A stretch of 64,000 nucleotides of DNA, from IMG/VR virus record IMGVR_UViG_3300007754_000852, one strand, 5' to 3'. Made by a program: the position numbers and the translations under genes. The stretch comes from a virus. Its lineage: Duplodnaviria > Caudoviricetes. Each line of letters begins with the position of its first letter. Position 1 is the stretch's first letter. The notes below the pieces were generated by a model. It saw only the letters and a list, made by a program, of their open reading frames with translations. It searched no databases and was not told the DNA's origin. Positions 2,804-58,751 of the stretch are shown piece after piece.

Positions 2804-4715
<1,912 letters not shown>

Positions 4716-21809: not shown

Positions 21810-22220
21810 TCAGATAAGTTTTTTAACAATGATATTGCTATCTGTGAGAACGCTTAGCCCACTGGAATCCCTATATTCTTCATCATATATCACCTTTTTT
21901 ATTCCTGCATTAATAAGGGCCTTGCTGCACATTCGACATGGACTTAAGGTGACATACATTATTTTGTCCTTTGGATTGTTATAGTCCATCTTAAGCAGTG
22001 CATTAATTTCTGCATGTAGCATTCCAGACTCACCTGGTGTTAGTGACTCCACCTCATTTGGACCACCTTTGTGATCCCCGTTATATCCTACTGCTAAGAC
22101 CTGCGTGTTATCTGACGTTACAACAATTGCACCGACCTTGTGTCTTGGATCAATCGACCTTCTTGCAATTGAATGTGCAAACTCCATCCAGATCTGATCC
22201 CATTTCGGTCTATGCTCCAT
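21810..22220 (-). CDS. dCMP deaminase
   Basis: KVGAIVV, GYNG, HAEINAL, TLSPCRMC. Confidence 0.92.
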   Translation of the reverse strand: MEHRPKWDQIWMEFAHSIARRSIDPRHKVGAIVVTSDNTQVLAVGYNGDHKGGPNEVESLTPGESGMLHAEINALLKMDYNNPKDKIMYVTLSPCRMCSKALINAGIKKVIYDEEYRDSSGLSVLTDSNIIVKKLI

Positions 22221-22234
22221 TGTAACCTCCCGAA

Positions 22235-22462
22235 CTAAAAGGGATTCTCCTCACAGTATCGAATTATCTCCATGATGTCATCAACAAAGGAGTCATCTAG
22301 ATCCTTATAAGACTCACCTAGAATGTCTCTGATTGTCTTCCAGATGTGTGCATGGGCATTCCTACCTTTTGGATGCTTCGAGGTCTCTGGCAGCTTACTG
22401 CTTAGGCTTCTTGCTGCTTCTTCGACCCTTTCCTGCACTCTTTTTTGGTTTTTTGGGCTCAT
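22235..22462 (-). CDS. Hypothetical protein
   Basis: 75-aa ORF, HPKGRNAHAHIW; overlaps the DHH gene tail. Confidence 0.6.
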   Translation of the reverse strand: MSPKNQKRVQERVEEAARSLSSKLPETSKHPKGRNAHAHIWKTIRDILGESYKDLDDSFVDDIMEIIRYCEENPF

Positions 22463-23447
22463 CCTTTTTCTCTGGCTTCTCTAGCTCATCTAGAAGTGAC
22501 TCAAGACCTTCGACGACGACGTTCTTGTCAGTGTCACCCTTCTTCTCAAGTGACTCCTTTATCTTTTTTATCTCCTCACGGGCACTTGACGTGTCAACCT
22601 TCTCCTCAACAACATCAAAGAGATTGTCAACAATTGTGTTTCCAGTCAGTGTAAATCCTGCTGCCTTCGGATGCCCGCCGCCGCCAAACTCCTTTGCAAC
22701 CTCTGACACATCGACCTTGTCGTGAAATGCCCTAAGGCTCACCCTGATGTTCCTCTTCTCATGGTCGTAATACCATATCACCGCAAAGTCACAGTCATGT
22801 GATAACCTTGCACCGATCTCAGACATCCAGTGCGATGCATTGACGACAAGAACATCATGACCCATGTATTTTCTCGGTTTTGCTTTCTCACACACCTTTC
22901 TAACAACTGACTTAGAATACTCAAGGATGTAACTACCTTTCTTAACTGCTGCGTCAAACACTGAGTCATCTTCAAATTTCTCAAACTCCTCAAAGTCAAA
23001 CGGAACCATGTCAAATGACGCTGAAAATTCTTTTGAGTAAGGTAGTTCCCACTTCCACAGGTCACGATCCTCGATATACCTAAGGAATTTAGGTGGTTCC
23101 TTTCCTGGGTGGAAGAAATTCCATGAGATTATCGTCCCAGAATGTTTCAGGTCAAATATTGTCTCCGTGATATCATGTAGCTCAACAACTGCTGACTTGT
23201 GATGATCAAGAACAATTAATGAATTTGCCTTTTCAATCAGCTCCTTTGTTGTCTCATTGCTAAAACTGAAATCGCAGATCGCGACGTTTTTTCCCTCGAC
23301 GTCTGGCGGAGCATCTCCATGAGCACATGCAACATATGCTGCTCTATTACCAAGCAGCTTCCATGCTGCATATGCACTTCCCTGCCCATCACTACAGTTC
23401 TTATGATAGATCACCAAATCTACGTCATTTGGATTAGGTCTTGCCAT
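22395..23447 (-). CDS. DHH/DHHA1 phosphoesterase
   Basis: YHKNCSDG, ICDFSF, LDHHKS, DRDLW, SLR, GGGGHPKAAG. Confidence 0.9.
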   Translation of the reverse strand: MARPNPNDVDLVIYHKNCSDGQGSAYAAWKLLGNRAAYVACAHGDAPPDVEGKNVAICDFSFSNETTKELIEKANSLIVLDHHKSAVVELHDITETIFDLKHSGTIISWNFFHPGKEPPKFLRYIEDRDLWKWELPYSKEFSASFDMVPFDFEEFEKFEDDSVFDAAVKKGSYILEYSKSVVRKVCEKAKPRKYMGHDVLVVNASHWMSEIGARLSHDCDFAVIWYYDHEKRNIRVSLRAFHDKVDVSEVAKEFGGGGHPKAAGFTLTGNTIVDNLFDVVEEKVDTSSAREEIKKIKESLEKKGDTDKNVVVEGLESLLDELEKPEKKDEPKKPKKSAGKGRRSSKKPKQ

Positions 23448-23450
23448 ATA

Positions 23451-24017
23451 TTAGTCCAGATTGTTTACAAAACTATGATATTCCCAACAGCGAGGCTCAT
23501 ATAAATCTGATCCACCAATGGTTATCTCATCAATACAATCACTTTTTCTATGAGTGTAATATGCATCTCTTCCTGTTACTGGACAAACTGCCGGACATAT
23601 CTCGATCTTTGTTGCCCAGGGCATCATGTCTCGAACCTCTTCAAATACCTTTCCTGTCGCAGATAACTGTAGAGATGAAACGACAATCGTCTTTCCCTTT
23701 CTAAAAAGATAAATAAGAGCTCTAGCAACGTCATCGATCATAAATGCCTCATCAACAGCAATAACATTAGCTGAGCCATCTGAGCTCTTGACGTGATTAA
23801 CTATATCGTCTCCGCTCTCAACTATTATAGCCTTCAACATTCCACCATTATGCGTTGTTATATCTCCGCTTGCATACCTATCATCTAACTTTGGCTTAAA
23901 CGATAGAACAGTTTTATTCTGATACCTGAATCTATCAACTGCGCCTAACAGTCTCGTTGTCTTTGATCCAAACATTGGTCCTGTAAATATTATAAACTCA
24001 GGCGATCTCACTTGCAC
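23451..24017 (-). CDS. tdk: Thymidine kinase
   Basis: GPMFGSKTT, KPKLDDRY, VDEA, IGGSDLYEPRC. Confidence 0.88.
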   Translation of the reverse strand: MQVRSPEFIIFTGPMFGSKTTRLLGAVDRFRYQNKTVLSFKPKLDDRYASGDITTHNGGMLKAIIVESGDDIVNHVKSSDGSANVIAVDEAFMIDDVARALIYLFRKGKTIVVSSLQLSATGKVFEEVRDMMPWATKIEICPAVCPVTGRDAYYTHRKSDCIDEITIGGSDLYEPRCWEYHSFVNNLD

Positions 24018-24409: not shown

Positions 24410-25430
24410 TTACTCCCCACCACCTAAGTGTTCTCTCAAGACCTTCCCAAAATCTCACTTGCACCTCATACCCGAGATCTCGCTGAACCTTAGAGATGTC
24501 TGCCTGTGTATGCATTACATCTCCAGGACGCCACGGAGCGTGTCTAACAACAGCATGACTAAACCTATTAGTAAAAAAGTCAAGAACTTCCTTGTTAGAT
24601 GTCCTATCTCCACACGATACATTATATGCACTTCCTAAAAATGACTTGTTAGATGTTGCTGCTAAGACGTTTGCCTCAACTGCATTGTCAACATAGCACA
24701 TGTCTCTTGACTGACTTCCATCACCGTCACTTCTTAGCGGGAGACCATTTTTAATTGCATTACACCACGCTGATATCGCTGTGGAGTATGGTGAATCTCC
24801 ATACTGTCCTGGCCCGAATACATTAAAGTATCTTAAACACACGATGTCAAGATCATAAAGGTCGCCAAATAGCCTTGCAGCATCCTCTATTGCACTTTTT
24901 TGCCAGGCATATGGTGACTTAGGTGATTTTTGTGTTTCCTCTCCTGTAGGAAGAACTTCTGCGCCGCCATAGACTGACGATGATGATGCCCACACGACAC
25001 GGTCGACGTTATTCACGCATACCTCAAAGAGCCTAATAGTCCCTGCTATATTTACATCAGTTGTCAGCGATGGATTTTCAACTGAATATGATACCCTTGG
25101 AATCGCTGCCTGATGAAATACCACATCATACATTTTTTCTGATATGTTCCTAATGATCTCCTTATGAGAAAAATCTCCCTGTATCACGAGAACTGCCTTA
25201 TCATCTCTATCTGTTACAGCACTGTAAAAATTTTGCAATAAATCTACAGGAACAACTCTCATGGCTACACCTTCAAGCAATTCAAGATGTCCATTTGACA
25301 TATCATCAACTACATCAACCTTCCAGCCATCACTCACAAGACGCTTTGTTAGATTTGATCCAATAAATCCGCAACCTCCGGTCACTAAAGCTCTTTTCAT
25401 CTTTTCTCCATTCTCATTAATTTTACTCAA
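24396..25430 (-). CDS. NAD-dependent NDP-sugar epimerase/dehydratase (extended SDR)
   Basis: VTGGCGFIGSNL, HQAA, ASSSSVYG, YAWQK (YxxxK), LRYFNVFGP, RDMCYV, RPGDV. Confidence 0.93.
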   Translation of the reverse strand: MSKINENGEKMKRALVTGGCGFIGSNLTKRLVSDGWKVDVVDDMSNGHLELLEGVAMRVVPVDLLQNFYSAVTDRDDKAVLVIQGDFSHKEIIRNISEKMYDVVFHQAAIPRVSYSVENPSLTTDVNIAGTIRLFEVCVNNVDRVVWASSSSVYGGAEVLPTGEETQKSPKSPYAWQKSAIEDAARLFGDLYDLDIVCLRYFNVFGPGQYGDSPYSTAISAWCNAIKNGLPLRSDGDGSQSRDMCYVDNAVEANVLAATSNKSFLGSAYNVSCGDRTSNKEVLDFFTNRFSHAVVRHAPWRPGDVMHTQADISKVQRDLGYEVQVRFWEGLERTLRWWGVNEDE

Positions 25431-26334
25431 TTATGTGCGCAGAGTTTAAATTCATTCTAATTCTCGCAGATGTACAATTTACACCAATTCTTTTCCAACA
25501 TTCCGACGCAAGATAGTAAAGAAACCTTAAGTCGTGTTCAAACAGCCTGACAACATCGCATGATCTTATCACACAATGAAAATCCATTATTTTATTTCTC
25601 TGACTAACTTGAATAAATGATATACAAGAATCATCAGTGTATACAAACCTTCTAGAAAAAATATCTTCCTTTCTCAGATACTCATTTTCTCCTGACATCT
25701 CTGATTCTATCTTTTTAAGAAGTGCTAAGAATATCTTTATGTAGTATTCTGACTCTGGCTCAAATTCTAAACTTTTTGGTGTTGCTTCCCTAAATTCTCC
25801 GTCGTCATGCAGTGTCAGCTGGAGCGGGAAGACCTCACTCCTCTCTGTCTGTCTTACAACCTTAGCTACAATACCTGCAACATCTTTGAGCTGAAATTTT
25901 TCATGTGACGTTAATTCATCTATAACATGATCAGCTATATCATTTATTGGTGAGCTTTCAGATGTTATTCTTACAGCTAACGGATGATCATTTAAACGCT
26001 TAAACTCTTTTTTAAACGACCTATGAACAGACTTTAAAGATCTAGCGTCGTGGATCTCATCTCCTCTCTTTTCAAATCTCTTCTTTATTACCCTAAACGG
26101 CAGATCGATGATAACATACCTGTTATTTAAATTGTACATCTCTCTGTGTAGATGGTCTTCCATATAGTCAATAGACCTACCATACATCTCTGAAAACACC
26201 TTTCTAGATAGCTGTGATCTATCCATGAGGTGCCACCGATACCCAGTTTTTTTATGAATCTCCCGAATCAGAGACGTCTTTCCTGAACAGTCTGGACCCT
26301 CTACAAATATTGTATGTGCTGGAAATGATAACAC
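25423..26334 (-). CDS. dNMP kinase fused to a compact thymidylate-synthase/dCMP-hydroxymethylase-like domain
   Basis: P-loop VEGPDCSGKT, MDRS; then SRR, C-x4-Q-x14-RSCD-x7-D, SAH. Confidence 0.75.
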   Translation of the reverse strand: MLSFPAHTIFVEGPDCSGKTSLIREIHKKTGYRWHLMDRSQLSRKVFSEMYGRSIDYMEDHLHREMYNLNNRYVIIDLPFRVIKKRFEKRGDEIHDARSLKSVHRSFKKEFKRLNDHPLAVRITSESSPINDIADHVIDELTSHEKFQLKDVAGIVAKVVRQTERSEVFPLQLTLHDDGEFREATPKSLEFEPESEYYIKIFLALLKKIESEMSGENEYLRKEDIFSRRFVYTDDSCISFIQVSQRNKIMDFHCVIRSCDVVRLFEHDLRFLYYLASECWKRIGVNCTSARIRMNLNSAHIIE

Positions 26335-30003: not shown

Positions 30004-31869
30004 TTAGTCAACCTCTTCATACTCTGCTTCAGAGAAGTCATCGCTTTCATGAGATGTCTCTTCATTTTTTGATGCATTCTCATACATTTCCCTTCCGGCA
30101 TTTTGAGATACCTCTTCAAGCTTCTCAAGAGCGCTTAAGAGAGCCTCTCTGTCATCCCCAGACAACGCATCCTTGGCATCAGCAACTGCAGACGTAATAT
30201 CAGCAAGAGTCTGATCTGATATCTGCCCACCTGAATCCTTTGTCATTTTTTCAACCTGATAGACTAGACTGTCGCATCTATTTCTATCTTCTACGTCTTT
30301 CTTTCTAATTGCATCTTCCTCTTCATGTTGCTTTGCATCATTAATCATTCTTTCAATATCGTCATCAGACAGTGATCCTTTACCCTCTATTCTAATAGAC
30401 TGATTTTTTCCTGTCGCCTTGTCTTTTGCTGAAACACTAACAATTCCGTTTGCATCGATATCAAATGTAACCTCGATCTGCGGGATCCCTCTCGGTGCGA
30501 CTGGTATGCCGTCTAGCCTAAACCTTCCAAGACTCTTGTTGTTCTTTGCAAACTGCCTTTCACCCTGAAGAACATGAATATCAACAGACGTCTGACCATC
30601 AGCTGCTGTGCTAAATGTCTCATTTTTTGAACACGGTATTGTTGAATTTCTATCAATTAGCCTAGTCATAACACCGCCCAGAGTCTCAATTCCAAGAGAC
30701 AAAGGTGTTACATCTAGCAAGAGAACATCGTGAACATCACCTGAGAATACCCCTCCTTGAACTGCTGCACCTAATGCGACAACTTCATCAGGATTTACAG
30801 AGCTGTTAGACTTTTTGTCAAAGAGCTTCTCAACTGCAGACTTAACTGCAGGGATTCTTGTTGATCCGCCTACGAGTATTACCTCATCAATGTCACCAAC
30901 ATTTAGCCCTGCATCCTTTAGGGCTCTCTTTGTAGGCTTCAGCGTTCTTTCAACAAATGACTCAATCATCTGTTCAAATTTTGACCTTAGAAGCTCAACT
31001 TGAAGATGTTTTGGCCCTGTTGAATCTGCTGTTAAAAATGGCAAGTTTACCTCTGTTTTTTGGGTGCTGGAAAGCTCTATTTTTGCCTTTTCAGATGCAT
31101 CTTTTAGTCGCTGTAAGACCATCTTATCTCCGCTGACGTCGATACCTGTTTTGTTCTTAAACTCTTCAATCAGCCATGATATTAATATCTGATCAACATC
31201 GTCGCCGCCTAGTCGAGTATCTCCATTTGTGCTAAGCACCTCAACAACGCCTTCTGCTATTTCAAGAATTGATATGTCAAATGTTCCACCTCCGAGATCA
31301 AATACAGCAATTTTTTGATCCTTTTTTTTGTCAAATCCATACGCTAATGCTGCAGCCGTCGGCTCATTAATAATTCTCTTTACATCAAGACCAGCAATCT
31401 GCCCAGCATCCTTTGTGGCCTGCCTTTGATCATCGTTAAAATATGCAGGAACAGTTACTACTGCTTCATTTATCTCACATCCAAAATATGACTCAGCTGA
31501 CCTTTTCAACTTTAAAAGAATCTGTGCACTTATCTCCTGTGGCGTATACTTCTTATCATCTATCTTTACGCTACATAGCTCACCCTCACCTGAGACAACA
31601 TTGTACGGCACATTCTTAATATCATCTTTTGAATCTGAAAATCTCGCCCCCATGAACCTCTTGATAGAAAATACTGTGTTTTCTGGATTAACAACGGCCT
31701 GTCTTCTGGCAGGATCACCTACAAGCCTCTCACCCTCCTTTGTAAATGCAACAACAGAAGGTGTTGTTCTGCTTCCTTCTTCGTTTGTAATTATCTTTGG
31801 TGTATCACCCTCTATGACTGAAGCGCAACTATTTGTTGTGCCCAAATCAATTCCTAGTACTTTTCCCAT
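30004..31869 (-). CDS. dnaK: Hsp70 chaperone DnaK
   Basis: [51 protein letters not shown]. Confidence 0.98.
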
Positions 31870-31944
31870 TTTTATCTCCTAGATTTGTTTTATCGGAATT
31901 TTCCTATCATAAATGTAGACACGATTTTATAAGAGGAAACCCTT

Positions 31945-32991
31945 TTATTGATTTTTTTGTCTTATTTTTTCAAGCTTTTCAATTAAAGACCGTTCTTCTT
32001 CACTTATCTCTTTTGGAATGTCAATTTTAACATGAGCATAATGATCTCCCGGACTCATGTCCCCCCTTATCATTCCCAATCCACATAGTGAAAATACATC
32101 TTTTTCCCTTGTTCCTGCAGGTATGTTAAATGTAACATCACCGTGGAGTGTCTCTATTCTAATACTGTCTCCTAAAACTGCCTGACCATAAGATATCAAA
32201 ACATTTCCATGAATGTCATTCATCTCTCTTTCAAACTTCTCATGGGGCATGACATCAACTCTCACTATCAAATCTCCAAAAATATTTGAAGCGGGATGGC
32301 AATGTCCCATTTTTGAAATCCTTAGCATCTCTCCTGACATTATCCCCTTAGGAATTTTAATATTAATAGACTTACTCTCAGCAGTCCTTCCTGCACCACT
32401 GCACATCGAACAATGTTTAATTACCTTTTTTCCACTTCCACCACAAGATGAACATGTCATTGAAATGTTTAAAAATGCAGCTTTATGATGAACCTTTCCA
32501 GATCCCTTACAAGAGCCGCACTCTTGTAGATCATTAGAATTTTCAATTCCCTCGCCGAGACATCTACTACACTGAATGCCTCTCTCAAACATGATGTTTC
32601 TTTCTGTTCCTGAAAATGCATCTCTTAAAGAGACGTTGATTCCTATGTGTAAATTTTCACCCTGTTGTGGTGGAGGTCGAGTTCCTTGTCTTTGCTGGTT
32701 GAAGAAGTTGTTGTCAAACCCTCTGAATCCAGAAAAAAAACTTTCAAATATGTCGTTTGGATTACCAGAAAATGAAAAATTATGAAGACCTCCTGAATCG
32801 TATTCGCTTCTTTTCTCTTTGTTCGAGAGAACCTCATATGCCTCAGTCGCTTCCTTGAACTTTTCTTCTGCGTCTTTGTCTTCCCTGTTTCTATCTGGAT
32901 GATACTGTAATGCTAGCTTTCTATATGACTTCTTTATATCATCGACGCTTGCGTCTTTTTTTACACCTAGTATTTTATAGTAGTCTTTCAC
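31945..32991 (-). CDS. dnaJ: DnaJ chaperone with J domain and zinc finger
   Basis: [14 protein letters not shown], four CxxCxGxG repeats, GDLIV. Confidence 0.95.
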
Positions 32992-33251
32992 GTCTTTTGT
33001 AGTTTCTTATCAGCTATAGCTATGTGTGCCTTACAATACTCATGATCACTGTTGCATGTGTTTGCTCGACAGGGTTTATCACTATAGTATCCACCGCAGC
33101 ACTTGCTAAAAAATGCTTTATTCCACAGCCTGACTCTTTCTTCCCTATTCAATTGTCCCATAGTACGGCTCAAAAATGAGCTCTCCTTTTTTGCTACACC
33201 TGAAAAGATAGTCGTCAAGCTCATCAAATGTCGTACAAACCTTGATTCCAC
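32988..33251 (-). CDS. Small Cys/His-rich hypothetical protein (start probably internal MGQL)
   Basis: CCGG...C...C...H..C..H pattern; annotated start overlaps the upstream gene. Confidence 0.5.
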
Positions 33252-33585
33252 TTTGAGATAACATCAGATTGAACGGCGCGCCTTCGGGTAGCCCAGCACA
33301 GAAATACACGATCGGAGTATCTGACTGATATGCTACTCCCGCCTCAAAGATGCTACCCATATCTTTATCTCTGGTGTTGCACAGCACAAAATCATTTCCC
33401 AGTATGTGTTCAACATTACCGTCAAACGTTTCACGTTGTGTATTAAGATCAGCAGTTGGCGGGCAGATGAAAAAATCCTTTGGAGAGAAATACTCAAATG
33501 AATGTTTTGTTAACAATTCCTTTATTGTTTCTACCTCCTCATATGCAGTGGGTGTAAACCATGAGCTAGCAATATACGCCTTCAT
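33145..33585 (-). CDS. Nucleoside 2-deoxyribosyltransferase / nucleotide N-glycosidase family
   Basis: YIASSWF, YFSPKD, D.GSIFEAGVAY. Confidence 0.85.
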   Translation of the reverse strand: MKAYIASSWFTPTAYEEVETIKELLTKHSFEYFSPKDFFICPPTADLNTQRETFDGNVEHILGNDFVLCNTRDKDMGSIFEAGVAYQSDTPIVYFCAGLPEGAPFNLMLSQSGIKVCTTFDELDDYLFRCSKKGELIFEPYYGTIE

Positions 33586-34571
33586 TATTCATTCTCCTTT
33601 ATAAGATTATATTCAGCTTCAAGAGCGCTGATCTCACTCAAGATCTCGCGCCATATCTGTCTAAATTTTGTGTTTCCAGCTGACTCCTCATCAGGTGGAT
33701 TCGTTCCATTGAGGTCAGATCTAAGAGCTTGATAGATCGTGTCGTTGGGGTGATACTCAACATGATCGTCGCTATCACTGTCAGGCCAGTACAGATTTGT
33801 TCCAGTTCCTGATCGAACATTCTTTACATAATGCCACGCCGGACTAGTTAGCGTTTTTGTTCCAATGACAGTGCTAGCCTCTGGTAACACCTTGATCACC
33901 TCTAACGCCATCTTCGCTGCGATCAGATTATCTGCAGCCGGCTGGATCTGCTTGTCAGCGCGCTGCTTGACAAAGCCTATGATATCCTTGAGGTTGAACC
34001 TACCATAATAGAATGTTGACAGGCACTTAGGAAGAACTGTTCTAGCGTCCATCATAGAGATCTGCTTCGTGTCAACCATGTCAGCGTAGAGCTGCTTTGC
34101 ATCCTCAACATGACGCTTCCACCGACGATACATCTCTGGACTATTCTCAACAGATGATGGAACCAGGCATGGCTCGTGGTGAAGAAATCTGTCACCTGTA
34201 CATTGAGCTGCGTACGATCCTGCCCTGTGCCTGATAAGATGTGTTACGGTTTGAAGGTCAATTCCTGCAAACTTAAACGTGAAGCTAAAGATCTCCATGG
34301 GCGTTGGTAATGCCCTGAAATTTAGCACATCTTCTAGGTTCTCGCTTAACTCATGTCTTGTAGCGCTGTCTGGATCTGACATCTCTGGGCTATCTGCCCA
34401 CGTCGCCTTGACATATCTCCACGCTGTATCTCTCATCTGCTCAGCGGTCGGGTGGTCAACAAGCTCAATTTGAAGAGCATCGAGATCATTTAAAAATTCT
34501 GTTGTTGGATCCTCATTGAATCTCAGGGACATCGGTAGGGTTACGGGGTCAAGATCTTTATTTTGCGGCAC
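33585..34571 (-). CDS. Flavin-dependent thymidylate synthase (ThyX)-like
   Basis: HLIRHRAGSYAAQCTGDR, DARTVLP, N-terminal E..SF.F; divergent. Confidence 0.7.
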   Translation of the reverse strand: MPQNKDLDPVTLPMSLRFNEDPTTEFLNDLDALQIELVDHPTAEQMRDTAWRYVKATWADSPEMSDPDSATRHELSENLEDVLNFRALPTPMEIFSFTFKFAGIDLQTVTHLIRHRAGSYAAQCTGDRFLHHEPCLVPSSVENSPEMYRRWKRHVEDAKQLYADMVDTKQISMMDARTVLPKCLSTFYYGRFNLKDIIGFVKQRADKQIQPAADNLIAAKMALEVIKVLPEASTVIGTKTLTSPAWHYVKNVRSGTGTNLYWPDSDSDDHVEYHPNDTIYQALRSDLNGTNPPDEESAGNTKFRQIWREILSEISALEAEYNLIKENE

Positions 34572-34572
34572 T

Positions 34573-35544
34573 TCATCTTTCCTTTTTTGTTAAGCTGTGC
34601 ACTAGATCATATACCGAATTAACATCCGTGTACATGGTGACATCTGAAACTTTTTTAAGCTCCTGATTATATGACATCTCAGGTGATAAAACCTTAACGC
34701 CATGCTTAGCATACTCACTCGCATGCTTGGCTGAGTCATCTATCGCACACACAACACCGTCAGCATCGTAGAAATCCTTCTGAACAAGCCATCTAAACTT
34801 TTCTGGTGAAAAATCAAGGTGATGAAACTTTAATCCTGCGTGCTCAAGCCAGAAATATGTGTCATAGAGACAAAGAAGGTTATCGCTTGGCCTCGCTGTG
34901 ATGATCTGAATCCAGTACCCTTCGTCATGTAACCTGTTCAAGACATCTATCATCTCACGATTTCTTGTGATGTGACGTAGCTTTCTCTCCTCAATGAACT
35001 CCTGAAACACCGCCTCTGGAAGAAGACCCGCTGCCTTTACCTCCTTTGAGGAGTAATATTCTGTTGAGTCATCAGGAACGATCACACCCTTTCTTTCCTT
35101 TAGCCACTTTGTGAAATACCCTCTAAACTCATTTAACACATCGTCCATGTCAACGAGAAGGACAGGTTGACCATCCCACTTATTCTTTTCCATCCTGTGG
35201 CGGGCGTGTAAGTAAAGATCCTTGTCCCAAAATGCGCCAATGAAGTCAGAGGGTTCAAACTCCCACATGTTCATCATTGCAAGAAGATATCGAAATGCGT
35301 CGACTGACTTATAGAGGATCTTGACCTTGTCGATGTCATGCTTGACCAATCGATGATCTTTAAAATTAACAGATGTCGCAAGCCCTGTCGCCTCTGCGTG
35401 AATCGCAAGGGCAAATGACTTGGTCATCTCCTCCTTCTGTCGATCGCTCATCTCATTCTTGTCAAAAAACAGAGATGAAAACTCATCCTGTCGATTAAAC
35501 ATCTTAAGAAATGTCGTGCTATGCTTTGTGTCGTCACTGCTCAT
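34573..35544 (-). CDS. MazG-like all-alpha domain fused to a HAD 5'(3')-deoxyribonucleotidase
   Basis: Helical N-domain (HAEA...VDAFRY); LLVDMDDVL, ITARP, AIDDS. Confidence 0.75.
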   Translation of the reverse strand: MSSDDTKHSTTFLKMFNRQDEFSSLFFDKNEMSDRQKEEMTKSFALAIHAEATGLATSVNFKDHRLVKHDIDKVKILYKSVDAFRYLLAMMNMWEFEPSDFIGAFWDKDLYLHARHRMEKNKWDGQPVLLVDMDDVLNEFRGYFTKWLKERKGVIVPDDSTEYYSSKEVKAAGLLPEAVFQEFIEERKLRHITRNREMIDVLNRLHDEGYWIQIITARPSDNLLCLYDTYFWLEHAGLKFHHLDFSPEKFRWLVQKDFYDADGVVCAIDDSAKHASEYAKHGVKVLSPEMSYNQELKKVSDVTMYTDVNSVYDLVHSLTKKER

Positions 35545-35594
35545 AATTTATTGTCCAATTGATATTTTTTCAAACGCAAACATTGATTCAATAA

Positions 35595-35623
35595 ATTCTA
35601 CACAGTTAAGGTAATTTTTACAA
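35595..35623 (-). promoter_or_regulatory. Sigma70-type promoter
   Basis: TTGTAA-N17-TAGAAT. Confidence 0.55.
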
Positions 35624-35636
35624 CACTCTACGCGCT

Positions 35637-36002
35637 TTAATAGCCGCCGAGAATTCTCTTTACGTTTACCTCACCCTTTGACATGTATGTGTCAAAAAGC
35701 TCATCAGACGAGATACCTGAACAGATCACTATGCCAAAGAAATAGTGAAGCACATCACACAATTCCTCGACATAGGCCTCTCGATCAAACTCTGTCACCT
35801 CAGTCGCTCTGTGATACTTGCTATTTTTAAGAAGAATATTTGACTCAAACAGCTCACCCATACACTCATATGCTAGCATTCTAAGAAACTGCTGTGATTT
35901 CTTTTCTGTGATTTCAAGCGGAACATCTGGGTGAGATCTATGTTCTTGCATGAGAGATATAAACTCTTCTTGCTGTTCATACATCTTTTTTAGTCTATCC
36001 AT
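35637..36002 (-). CDS. All-alpha dNTP pyrophosphatase (MazG/dUTPase-2/dCTPase-like)
   Basis: ECMGELFE...EELCDVLHY...YMSKGEVN. Confidence 0.8.
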   Translation of the reverse strand: MDRLKKMYEQQEEFISLMQEHRSHPDVPLEITEKKSQQFLRMLAYECMGELFESNILLKNSKYHRATEVTEFDREAYVEELCDVLHYFFGIVICSGISSDELFDTYMSKGEVNVKRILGGY

Positions 36003-36004
36003 TT

Positions 36005-36241
36005 TTACGTCATCTCAGATGGGTTATTAAGACTGCTGATGTCAGACATAAGCTTTTCAACATGCTCCTCGCCAAGAGATCTATACTCAGGTGTTAAAGT
36101 TAAAATAGACTCATCATCATCTGACGCTGTAACACGTATCATTCTAAGATTGTCAACGACGTCAGTTCCAGTTATGATTGCTAGCTGTACAAGTCTAGCT
36201 ACCTGTGCAACAACCTCATCAGAAAGTTTAAATTCAGACAT
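36005..36241 (-). CDS. Hypothetical protein
   Basis: 78-aa ORF with AGGAG RBS. Confidence 0.75.
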   Translation of the reverse strand: MSEFKLSDEVVAQVARLVQLAIITGTDVVDNLRMIRVTASDDDESILTLTPEYRSLGEEHVEKLMSDISSLNNPSEMT

Positions 36242-36316: not shown

Positions 36317-37003
36317 TTGTATGTTATAGTAAAGGCATGTTCAATGAAAAGAGTTATCATTTCAGACACTCACATCGGAAGTAATTTCTATAAATCTGAC
36401 ATCCTCTTAGAATTTCTAAAAAATGAGACATACGATCAGTTAATTCTTGCCGGTGATATCATTGACTTTTTAAAGATTCCCATGTTTACAGAAAGGTGCA
36501 TGGAGATTCTAAAGGTAATCAGTTGCAGCAGAGACATCATCTATATCGTTGGTAATCACGACGAGAGCTTTGTCAAGCTCGCAGGCAAGAATCTTCTTGG
36601 GATTAACTTTGTCAAAAAATACGAATTTTCTGAGGGTGGGAGGAAGTTTAGAATAGAGCATGGCGATGAGTATGACAAAGGTGTCATTCATAATAGGATC
36701 TTTGTCAAGCTTCTCTCTGTCATCCAAAACATACTAGAGATCGCATTTAGCTTTGATTTCACGTCATGGTGGACAGAGAAGCAGATCAAAAAGCACAAGC
36801 TACGAAGCGTGATCCACATTCTTAGGCACAATGACGACATTGACGTTTTTATCATGGGTCACACTCACAATCCTGAGGCGTTGATATGGATAAACGAGGA
36901 TCAAAACATTAAAACATATATCAACGCCGGTGATTGGGTCACACACCAGACATATGTTACAATTTGTGACGGTGTCGCACGATTACAAAAATTCAATAAA
37001 TAG
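36317..37003 (+). CDS. LpxH-like metallophosphoesterase (likely start ATG 36344)
   Basis: ISDTHIG, LAGDIID, VGNHD, EHGDEYD, MGHTH, NAGDW; only plus-strand gene. Confidence 0.88.
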   Translation: MYVIVKACSMKRVIISDTHIGSNFYKSDILLEFLKNETYDQLILAGDIIDFLKIPMFTERCMEILKVISCSRDIIYIVGNHDESFVKLAGKNLLGINFVKKYEFSEGGRKFRIEHGDEYDKGVIHNRIFVKLLSVIQNILEIAFSFDFTSWWTEKQIKKHKLRSVIHILRHNDDIDVFIMGHTHNPEALIWINEDQNIKTYINAGDWVTHQTYVTICDGVARLQKFNK

Positions 37004-37415
37004 ATTTCAAAAAATTGTGATAATTTATCAATGCGCCATCTTTTGGTTTCACATCCTGCCACTCACCTAAGCAGAAGATTCGATATGCATCTACGGCATA
37101 CTTTCCGACTCCGTAGAGAACATCTGGACTATCCTTCCAGCTCTCATTGAGGTAACCAATAGACATCATCACCAAGGCCTTAGAACGTCTCTGGGACAGC
37201 CCTAACGGCTGTATCATCCTCTCTATCTCTACGGGATCTGTCGCTGCAGCTGTCTCAGGATCAGGATATCGCTCGAAAAACTTCCACATGTAAGGTTCAG
37301 AGTCAACTCGTCTAGTTAGGTTGCAGAAGATACAAGCGACAAATATCTTCCACGGGTCATGCCACAGTTGTTCCTGAATTAGATTATACGGTGACTTCGG
37401 CGGGGACCAGTACAT
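36993..37415 (-). CDS. MBD4-like HhH-GPD mismatch DNA glycosylase
   Basis: WSPPKSPYNLIQEQLWHDPWK, QPLGL, LYGVGKYAVDAYRIF closely follow the MBD4 catalytic domain, including its Asp. Confidence 0.88.
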   Translation of the reverse strand: MYWSPPKSPYNLIQEQLWHDPWKIFVACIFCNLTRRVDSEPYMWKFFERYPDPETAAATDPVEIERMIQPLGLSQRRSKALVMMSIGYLNESWKDSPDVLYGVGKYAVDAYRIFCLGEWQDVKPKDGALINYHNFLKSIY

Positions 37416-37421
37416 GAGATG

Positions 37422-37451
37422 ATTATAGCATGCAAGATAGGATTTTTACAC
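37422..37451 (-). promoter_or_regulatory. Sigma70-type promoter, probably leaderless
   Basis: GTGTAA-N18-TATAAT with TGC extension, 6 nt before ATG 37415. Confidence 0.5.
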
Positions 37452-37454
37452 ATT

Positions 37455-38165
37455 CTATTCTTCTTCATCTGGCCTATTATTCCACCCTCTTATGTTCGCA
37501 AATATGTTCATTATGTCTGACTTTACATCATCGTCTGCATGTGTCCATTGCCATATGGCACTGCTCTTTATTTCTAATATCTTTTTCTCGAGAGCTGTTA
37601 TCTCATCCCTAAGAAATAAAATGAACTCATCATCATCAACTGTAAAGTCAACACCAAGATCACCAGCAGACTCTAAGAGATTTATATAGTTATCACTTTT
37701 ATATGACTCAGCAGCTTTTTTATAAATACCAATTAACTTTTCCTTAAGCGTCTTATCTAGCGACTGCGGCACCTTGTCAGGATGTGTCATTAGTGCTATT
37801 TTTCTAAATATTTTTTTTACCCACGGAGGTTTCTCCACGATGTCGTTTTCATAAAATTTATCAGCATCCGTGTGATTTATGTCATCTAGATCACCACTAT
37901 CATCAGACTGTGACACCTCTATGTCTCTATCGTCATTTAAAAACTCATTGCTGACCTCGTCGTCTTCTATACCCAGCTTGTCTTTTTTCTCAACAGCGCT
38001 ATTAAAGAATTCAATCTTTGCCTCATCATATATTTGCTGACACTCGTCAAGCTCAGCCTTGAGATATCGAATCTTAAGAGTTAGCTTATTAACTTTTGAG
38101 CTGTTATTCACCTTTGTCTTATCACAGGTCACGACGTCTAAACGCCGCAACAACATCTCTAACAA
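37455..38165 (-). CDS. J-domain-containing protein (start uncertain)
   Basis: IFRKIALMTHPDK; coiled-coil N-terminus. Confidence 0.7.
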   Translation of the reverse strand: MLEMLLRRLDVVTCDKTKVNNSSKVNKLTLKIRYLKAELDECQQIYDEAKIEFFNSAVEKKDKLGIEDDEVSNEFLNDDRDIEVSQSDDSGDLDDINHTDADKFYENDIVEKPPWVKKIFRKIALMTHPDKVPQSLDKTLKEKLIGIYKKAAESYKSDNYINLLESAGDLGVDFTVDDDEFILFLRDEITALEKKILEIKSSAIWQWTHADDDVKSDIMNIFANIRGWNNRPDEEE

Positions 38166-58253: not shown

Positions 58254-58751
58254 TTAATCCTCTGGATCAACAATTAAAACGTCTTCAGATAGAGATTTCA
58301 TCTCTTCATACGACTCTAAGTCAATGCTAGCTTCATCTATGCTGAATTGTTTTACCATCGCTATCTCAAGAATGTCATCGACATACTGGCTATATTCTGT
58401 GTTTCTCATGATATCGCAAAATTCATTTTTTCTAAATTTTTTATCTATGACGATCTCACCTGTCTTTACATCTGTTACACTCATGGTCTTCCATCCACCT
58501 GTGCCTGCTAGCAAGATCTCCTTTCCATTAACAGTCTCAGGCCCGTGCTTTCTCAAAAGATCAAAAATTTGCTCGTGCTCTTTAATTCCCACACCAAAGT
58601 GAATCTCAAAATTTATTTTTCTAAATGGAGGGGCAACCTTATTTTTAATTGTCTTTGCAGACACATGAATTCCGATGACATCATCACCATCCTTTATCTG
58701 CTGTCCAGCTCCTAGCTTTATTCTAGTTGAAGCATGAAAAGGTATTGCTCT
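58254..58751 (-). CDS. recA: RecA 3' exon (165 codons plus stop)
   Basis: Frame open to 58751: RAIPFHASTRIKLG...KTIKNKVAPPFR...GI, the direct continuation of TTPGG. Confidence 0.92.
   Translation of the reverse strand, partial: RAIPFHASTRIKLGAGQQIKDGDDVIGIHVSAKTIKNKVAPPFRKINFEIHFGVGIKEHEQIFDLLRKHGPETVNGKEILLAGTGGWKTMSVTDVKTGEIVIDKKFRKNEFCDIMRNTEYSQYVDDILEIAMVKQFSIDEASIDLESYEEMKSLSEDVLIVDPED

Follow-up and report, generated by a model that had tools for sequence, protein, structure and literature searches.

The locus examined here raises the question of why a phage should carry an enzyme resembling the glycosylase domain of MBD4, and whether that enzyme repairs a genome in which cytosine is modified. 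The window, which is the whole 64,000-nt stretch of DNA that was analysed, belongs by gene content to a jumbo phage (DnaE, DnaB, gp32, RecA, sigma70, amidase and RNR), and CheckV estimates place the relatives of this phage at 250–350 kb. The chaperones GroEL, DnaK and DnaJ are encoded, as is another J-domain-like protein immediately upstream of the glycosylase (2804–4414, 30004–32991 and 37455–38165). The recA gene (58254–60967) is interrupted by an insert that carries an endonuclease and by an intein-like piece. Across positions 1–64000, CG is depleted (observed/expected 0.67), as is CGCG (0.46), and other C/G palindromes are not avoided; the palindrome avoidance measure (mean 0.96, sd 0.17) was uninformative.

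The ORF at 36993–37415 (minus strand) is intact, begins with ATG, and specifies a stand-alone MBD4-type HhH glycosylase of 140 aa, as judged by alignment and predicted structure. In phmmer searches of the PDB, its residues 3–136 matched the glycosylase domains of human and mouse MBD4 with an E-value of 1e-40 and a single one-residue insertion, the next matches being MutY (1.6e-4) and MIG (1kea, 0.063). The AlphaFold model (pLDDT 91) superimposes on human MBD4 bound to T:G DNA (6vjw) with a TM-score of 0.95, an rmsd of 0.8 Å and 46% identity, compared with TM-scores of 0.6–0.69 for MutY, Nth and MIG. The hallmarks of those three families (an Fe-S domain, and family-specific wedge and pocket) are missing: there is no Fe-S cluster, the last helix being the end of the protein, and no lyase lysine in the HhH, which reads G-x-G-K-Y with Tyr at the position of the Nth lysine. 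Sequence, fold and tree grouping (99/97) all favour the MBD4 catalytic domain over MutY, Nth and MIG, and with the U/T-reading pocket and catalytic Asp also intact, the family assignment made in a first-pass annotation is borne out. The methyl-CpG-binding domain is absent, the 140-aa ORF having its own start and promoter motif, and near homologs are of similar size (139–159 aa). The match to Pfam HhH-GPD (PF00730) falls below the cut-off, and no family was found for the protein in PHROGs. Comparison with six relatives gave pS values of 0.62–0.81 and pN values of 0.13–0.18, so the gene is under strong purifying selection. By sequence and predicted fold, then, this is a real, conserved, stand-alone MBD4-type enzyme, and it belongs to a viral subfamily whose finger loop has been rebuilt.

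That loop requires closer attention. The annotation had described the sequence as following MBD4 almost end to end, which is true of the length aligned but conceals that the DNA-wedge loop carries substitutions, all of them invariant (L466C, R468L, G471R and K562A). Similarly, the motif GVGKYAVDAYRIF, like the other one quoted, is present in the ORF, but its Asp corresponds to Asp543, and the catalyst is Asp560 (D126, in KPKD). Residue numbering follows the PDB alignment, anchored on two publications (PMC3479182 and PMC12073362), and gives the equivalences (phage = human) I13/Q14 = V448/Q449, C31 = L466, L33 = R468 (the finger), R36 = G471, L71 = L506, Y106 = Y540, D126 = catalytic D560 and A128 = K562. 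The set that reads U or T is kept: I13 (Val448, by its main chain), Q14 (Gln449) and Y106 (Tyr540); and Q14, Y106, D126 and L71 are invariant or nearly so across 58 viral loci and 120 near homologs. The loop that enters DNA, L466-N-R468-T-S-G471 in the human enzyme, has become C-N-L-T-R-R, Lys562 has become Ala, and three of the nine pocket-lining residues are changed (L466C, G471R and K562A). With L33 invariant at the finger throughout the clade, the basic Arg/Lys468 of the human enzyme is missing. More widely, the finger is Leu, Gln or Cys and never basic in 258/258 viral rows (partly redundant), so that the specificity of MBD4 cannot simply be assumed for these enzymes, and position 471 is Arg or Lys in 242 of these 258 partly redundant rows. 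Among eukaryote-type rows, 155/168 have a basic finger, none of the 155 having Arg/Lys471; the other 13 of the 168 also lack a basic finger, and a non-basic finger therefore marks a variant subfamily. The simplest reading of the alignment is that positive charge has shifted from 468 to 470/471 in the viral enzymes.

Human MBD4 carrying R468L is reported to be completely or nearly inactive (PMC12073362), so the human substrate range that the annotation had carried over, T, U or 5hmU opposite G, cannot be transferred to the phage enzyme. It may be asked whether the phage protein cuts DNA at all, or is instead a weak or non-cutting binder of mismatches or abasic sites that passes them on (e.g., to Nei), or even a slowly decaying passenger. 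The patchy presence of the gene would suit such a role, as would the frequent replacement of the catalytic Asp by Asn in the distant marine clade of S-TIM54-like phages. However, Asp126, Gln14 and Tyr106 are unvarying within the protein's own clade, the finger Leu is invariant and has not drifted, and strong purifying selection is accompanied by a conserved promoter motif, all of which make this explanation improbable.

Arg468 has also been proposed as the sensor of the T:G pair itself (PMC12073362). Its replacement could then mean an active glycosylase with a rebuilt wedge and shifted or widened specificity, acting on uracil-like or oxidised pyrimidines (plain U:G, or dU and its modified forms misincorporated opposite A) in a housekeeping role with Nei, for which neither modified cytosine nor a G partner would be needed. 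Against this, a T-accepting pocket would destroy normal T:A pairs unless G were required. In the MBD4 structure the orphan G is read by the main-chain carbonyls of 468 and 506 (PMC3479182), so G recognition can survive a side-chain change at 468, and in the phage model this main-chain recognition is structurally kept. The 5-hydroxymethyl group makes no contact with the MBD4 protein, and Q449A is dead (PMC3479182); since the C5 substituent is uncontacted, several modifications fit the pocket. Judged from the model, G-specific repair of several C5-substituted uracils by the phage enzyme is possible despite R468L.

The surroundings of the gene bear on these readings. Six nt before the ATG lies a candidate promoter, TGTAAA-17 nt-TATAAT with a TG extension (37422–37450, minus strand, within 37416–37450). 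Of 50 distinct relatives, 35 have TGTAA within 60 nt of the gene's start and 1 has it in a control window placed 200 nt farther upstream; the motif may serve as the promoter of a leaderless mRNA. Motifs of the TGTAAA-N17-TATAAT type recur at a few other intergenic sites, including 35622 and 2123 (minus strand), and are candidate promoters for a host or phage sigma70 (964–1725). At its 3′ end the glycosylase gene overlaps by 11 nt a convergent calcineurin-like phosphoesterase gene (36317–37003, plus strand); in the window's subclade this fills the slot where most relatives have Fpg/Nei. Downstream of the glycosylase is a conserved pyrimidine-nucleotide cassette (33145–36241, minus strand), comprising a 78-aa protein, a dUTPase/MazG-like NTP pyrophosphatase, a MazG-NT5C fusion, ThyX, and a nucleoside deoxyribosyltransferase-like (NDT-like) glycosidase. 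The long ThyX-like protein (33585–34571) has a Cys in its motif, and in several relatives the slot holds an additional, shorter ThyX-like gene (L255, L256, L259, L260 and L261), so the long form may serve another role.

An early-type promoter motif of its own, a leaderless start, and salvage neighbours such as TK, NDT-like and NT5C might be expected of an offensive or discriminating enzyme, which would nick host or competitor DNA or strip unmodified bases while modified phage DNA was spared. We consider this very improbable, as the pocket reads U/T-type edges and not C, the structure gives no hint of activity on normal pairs, and loss of a homolog in the Bosavirus group, described below, raises mutation of the phage's own genome. 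Several features of the neighbourhood speak for the housekeeping role: the glycosylase adjoins sanitising genes of the Nei, dUTPase and MazG type and lies 10.7 kb from the candidate cytosine modifier, and no UDG family member (PF03167) was found in the 29 jumbo-clade records searched, a result that also favours the repair of deaminated cytosine proposed below.

That candidate modifier is a kinase fused to a truncated TS-fold domain (25423–26334, minus strand), recognised by its residues and a fold match, and in one operon with genes for dCMP deaminase, a DHH phosphoesterase and thymidine kinase (21810–24017, minus strand). It keeps Cys146, Arg166 and His207 and has an invariant Asp at 177, and the folate-binding half is missing. 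An Asp at TS position 177 is a mark of dCMP preference. Both C237 (the catalytic Cys146) and D268 (the Asp at Asn177) are unvarying in 17 fusion homologs. The best fold match, a weak one, is the HY126 dCMP hydroxylase AfhB (9iqu; E 7e-7, TM 0.36/0.47). In TS homologs a folate site goes with a methyl or hydroxymethyl product and D169N with a 5-hydroxy product (PMC13326640); position 169 is Asp here and Asp, Asn or Glu in relatives.

The glycosylase had been taken as independent support for such a dCMP modifier, with co-occurrence across phages as a check. Of 48 records with the glycosylase, 32 also have the fusion, including 21/21 of those at least 22% complete, but 14 fusion-bearing relatives lack the glycosylase although their syntenic slot is covered, and only 4 of 41 further fusion-bearing records have a full homolog. 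Co-occurrence within the jumbo clade is shared descent, as it is with RecA and DnaE, and the claim of independent support fails here. MBD4 removes U arising from the decay of plain cytosine too, so the enzyme is not independent proof of a modifier.

The homologs identified comprise 276 stand-alone proteins; the top 120 are 139–159 aa long, with 66–78% identity. At 62 viral loci the gene order is syntenic, the glycosylase lying between ClpP/amidase and the cassette of dUTPase-like, MazG-NT5C, ThyX and NDT-like genes; Fpg/Nei is present in 39 of the 62 and abuts the glycosylase (-1 to 54 bp) in 22. Three clusters contain glycosylase-Fpg/Nei fusions with the Nei start motif retained at the junction, seen as Met/Val-PEGPE (P0121–P0123; L267:4886–6160). 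Nei requires a free N-terminal Pro, which in these fusions is likely to be exposed through an internal start or by cleavage. On a ThyX+dUTPase tree the presence of the glycosylase changes state 6–7 times, and the gene is a conserved accessory of one jumbo-phage clade. A replacement mismatch glycosylase in the slot of relatives without the gene was considered and rejected, as the slot holds Nei or nothing recognisable. Neither C5 methyltransferase (PF00145) nor canonical TS (PF00303) was found in the jumbo-clade records searched, and the lack of the former makes methyltransferase-made 5mC an unlikely target. Raw fourfold-site GC is 0.28 with the glycosylase and 0.17 without it, and as a proxy for repair, third-position (fourfold) GC was null on independent pairs (1.4 the same way, 1.5 opposite).

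A plasmid search gave only weak MutY-like matches, and 185,579 GTDB genomes yielded a single match, on a 6.4-kb MAG contig where the gene has its usual phage neighbours. It was rejected as a cellular gene because of the phage gene order on that contig (NYZO01000017.1, L086, from an archaeal MAG), which is probably a mis-binned phage fragment. With this as the only GTDB match, viruses are the only prokaryote-side reservoir of MBD4 seen.

Support that is independent of the jumbo clade comes from other phage lineages, in which cytosine modifiers accompany homologs and C-to-T change follows loss. Among cultured phages, homologs (34–37% identity) occur only in Xp12 and its kin and in cyanophage S-TIM54. 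Xp12 DNA is fully 5mC, and its TS has been shown to make 5mdCMP (10.1101/2024.12.05.627091). The Xp12 homolog has a Leu finger and lies two genes before TS, in the order glycosylase, NTP pyrophosphatase, TS, dCMP deaminase and DHFR. A thymidylate synthase with Asp177 was present in 11/11 Xp12-like records tested, and only 13 of 74 records with the Xp12-type TS carry the homolog. In S-TIM54 (L155, OP053362, 145421–146233) an Asp177 TS lies beside a C5 methyltransferase, and ThyX is also annotated; the kinase-TS profile had no match in S-TIM54-like records, all of which are fragments. In another viral clade the homolog is next to a DNA alpha-glucosyltransferase, as in L102, or to base-hypermodification genes. 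Other contexts would favour the housekeeping role: some homologs lie beside Dam, and a marine lineage keeps its homolog inside a 7-deazaguanine cluster. In these marine phages of about 350 kb (L110–L153, e.g., L138:902–8269), the short MBD4-like gene sits among GTP cyclohydrolase I and QueE-, QueD- and DpdA-like genes, and many copies have Asn where the catalytic Asp would be.

A natural experiment is provided by Bosavirus, where the homolog is cleanly deleted in DoCa10, Bosa and DLP4. In seven Bosavirus genomes, C-to-T/G-to-A changes account for 69% (929/1343) of polarised changes on branches that lack the gene, against 30% (342/1146) on those that have it, a contrast that represents one loss event, concerns a homolog of 34% identity, and is open to recombination. 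Fourfold-site GC is 0.84–0.85 without the gene and 0.89–0.91 with it. There are exceptions, DoCa6 having the gene yet 71% C-to-T, and Xoo-sp2 lacking it with no excess. The excess matches the prediction for lost T:G repair and suggests, by analogy, that a Leu-finger enzyme is active. It also counts against the housekeeping role, since a C-to-T signal after loss in 5mC phages is what T:G repair predicts, and together with the arguments from T:A pairs and G recognition it leaves that role rather unlikely. The proposal that the enzyme is the repair partner of a modified-cytosine genome thus gains from modifiers nearby in unrelated lineages (Xp12-like, S-TIM54 and L102) and from the Bosavirus loss, but is weakened by the homolog of the 7-deazaguanine cluster and the null result for jumbo-clade composition.

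On balance, the phage glycosylase probably repairs deaminated, and probably modified, cytosine opposite G. As a monofunctional base-excision enzyme it would flip a uracil-like base (T, U, 5hmU or 5-hydroxy-U) from a mispair with G and cut it off, the substrate arising by deamination of phage cytosines that are probably modified at C5 by the kinase-TS fusion. Leu33 would act as the wedge, and the invariant Arg36 (Gly471) and Lys/Arg35 may take over phosphate pinching. In most relatives the phage's own Fpg/Nei would then take over the abasic site; in the window's subclade, AP enzymes of the host would do so. Such an enzyme would be needed if, as we infer, the phage genome is cytosine-modified, as host uracil glycosylase presumably leaves T and most C5-substituted uracils. 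The judgement stays at probable after counting against it the inactivity of human R468L, the three of nine pocket changes, the dispensability of the gene, the null GC pairs and the Bosavirus exceptions.

The annotation had also suggested a bearing on the origin of MBD4. In a tree with MutY and Nth as outgroup, all MBD4-like rows separate from these two and from MIG (99/97). Support for the clade of the window is firm (100/98), and an unstarred group (89/91) unites this clade with core eukaryotic MBD4, leaving several further viral clades and two algal sequences outside. Grouping with MBD4 is thereby upheld, but AU tests (LG+G4, 149 columns, many of the eukaryote-labelled rows being identified by no more than their length and domain content) do not reject monophyly of the eukaryotes (p 0.37; 0.34 for the core set) or of the phages (p 0.33), and no direction of transfer emerges. 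Three algal proteins (P0249, P0264 and P0298, in clusters including Phaeocystis cordata and Prasinoderma coloniale) have a non-basic finger, Arg471 and Ala562, and the first two of them fall outside core eukaryotic MBD4 in the tree, a possible virus-to-alga transfer or viral contamination. It could be speculated, though we think it doubtful, that the stand-alone viral enzymes with a non-basic finger are an old and widespread subfamily repairing modified-cytosine phage genomes by a different wedge, that this viral pool was the source of eukaryotic MBD4, and that at least one phage-type copy later passed into algae.

A viral reservoir bears on the origin of MBD4, and a naturally invariant R468L/G471R enzyme bears directly on what the arginine finger of MBD4 has been proposed to do. 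Deamination in phages with wholly modified cytosine has been little studied, and this glycosylase is a small candidate for such work, for which Bosavirus offers a cultured contrast (AXL1 and Xp12 with the gene, DLP4 and Bosa without). It could also yield a compact T:G or hmU:G tool for methylation sequencing. No publication on MBD4 in phages turned up in the literature searches.

Among known systems, the closest is the glycosylase domain of mammalian MBD4/MED1 (human ~426–580; 6vjw, 3iho, 4dk9, 4e9g and 4evv), with 46% identity and a TM-score of 0.95. The two share Gln449, Tyr540, Asp560, Leu506-Gly-Leu508, Arg512 and the HhH hairpin, and both lack an Fe-S cluster and the lyase lysine, having Tyr instead. 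Unlike the mammalian protein, the phage enzyme is phage-encoded and often coupled to Fpg/Nei, has no methyl-CpG-binding domain or linker, and differs by its finger Leu, L466C, S470R/K, G471R and K562A. The ENDO3c-domain protein of Xp12 and AXL1 (Bosavirus; Xp12 QNN97216, AXL1 gp65) is likewise stand-alone, with a Leu finger and the Gln/Tyr/Asp set, in a phage with a dCMP-directed TS, but it is only 34% identical, forms a separate clade, has Trp at 471, keeps Lys562, and lies inside a 5mC cassette; it is known from sequence, and the published account of AXL1 gp65 goes no further than calling it endonuclease III-like, with a putative Asp141 (PMC9206674). The HhH-GPD fold is shared by MutY and endonuclease III (Nth), but these match the phage enzyme at E 1e-4 or worse and have a different pocket. 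MIG (Mig.MthI), from plasmid pFV1 of Methanothermobacter thermautotrophicus, follows the same logic, as an HhH T/U:G glycosylase on a mobile element beside a C5 methyltransferase, but differs from the phage glycosylase in being of the Fe-S type, 221 aa long, distant in sequence and fold (E 0.063, TM 0.65), and outside the MBD4 group (99/97).
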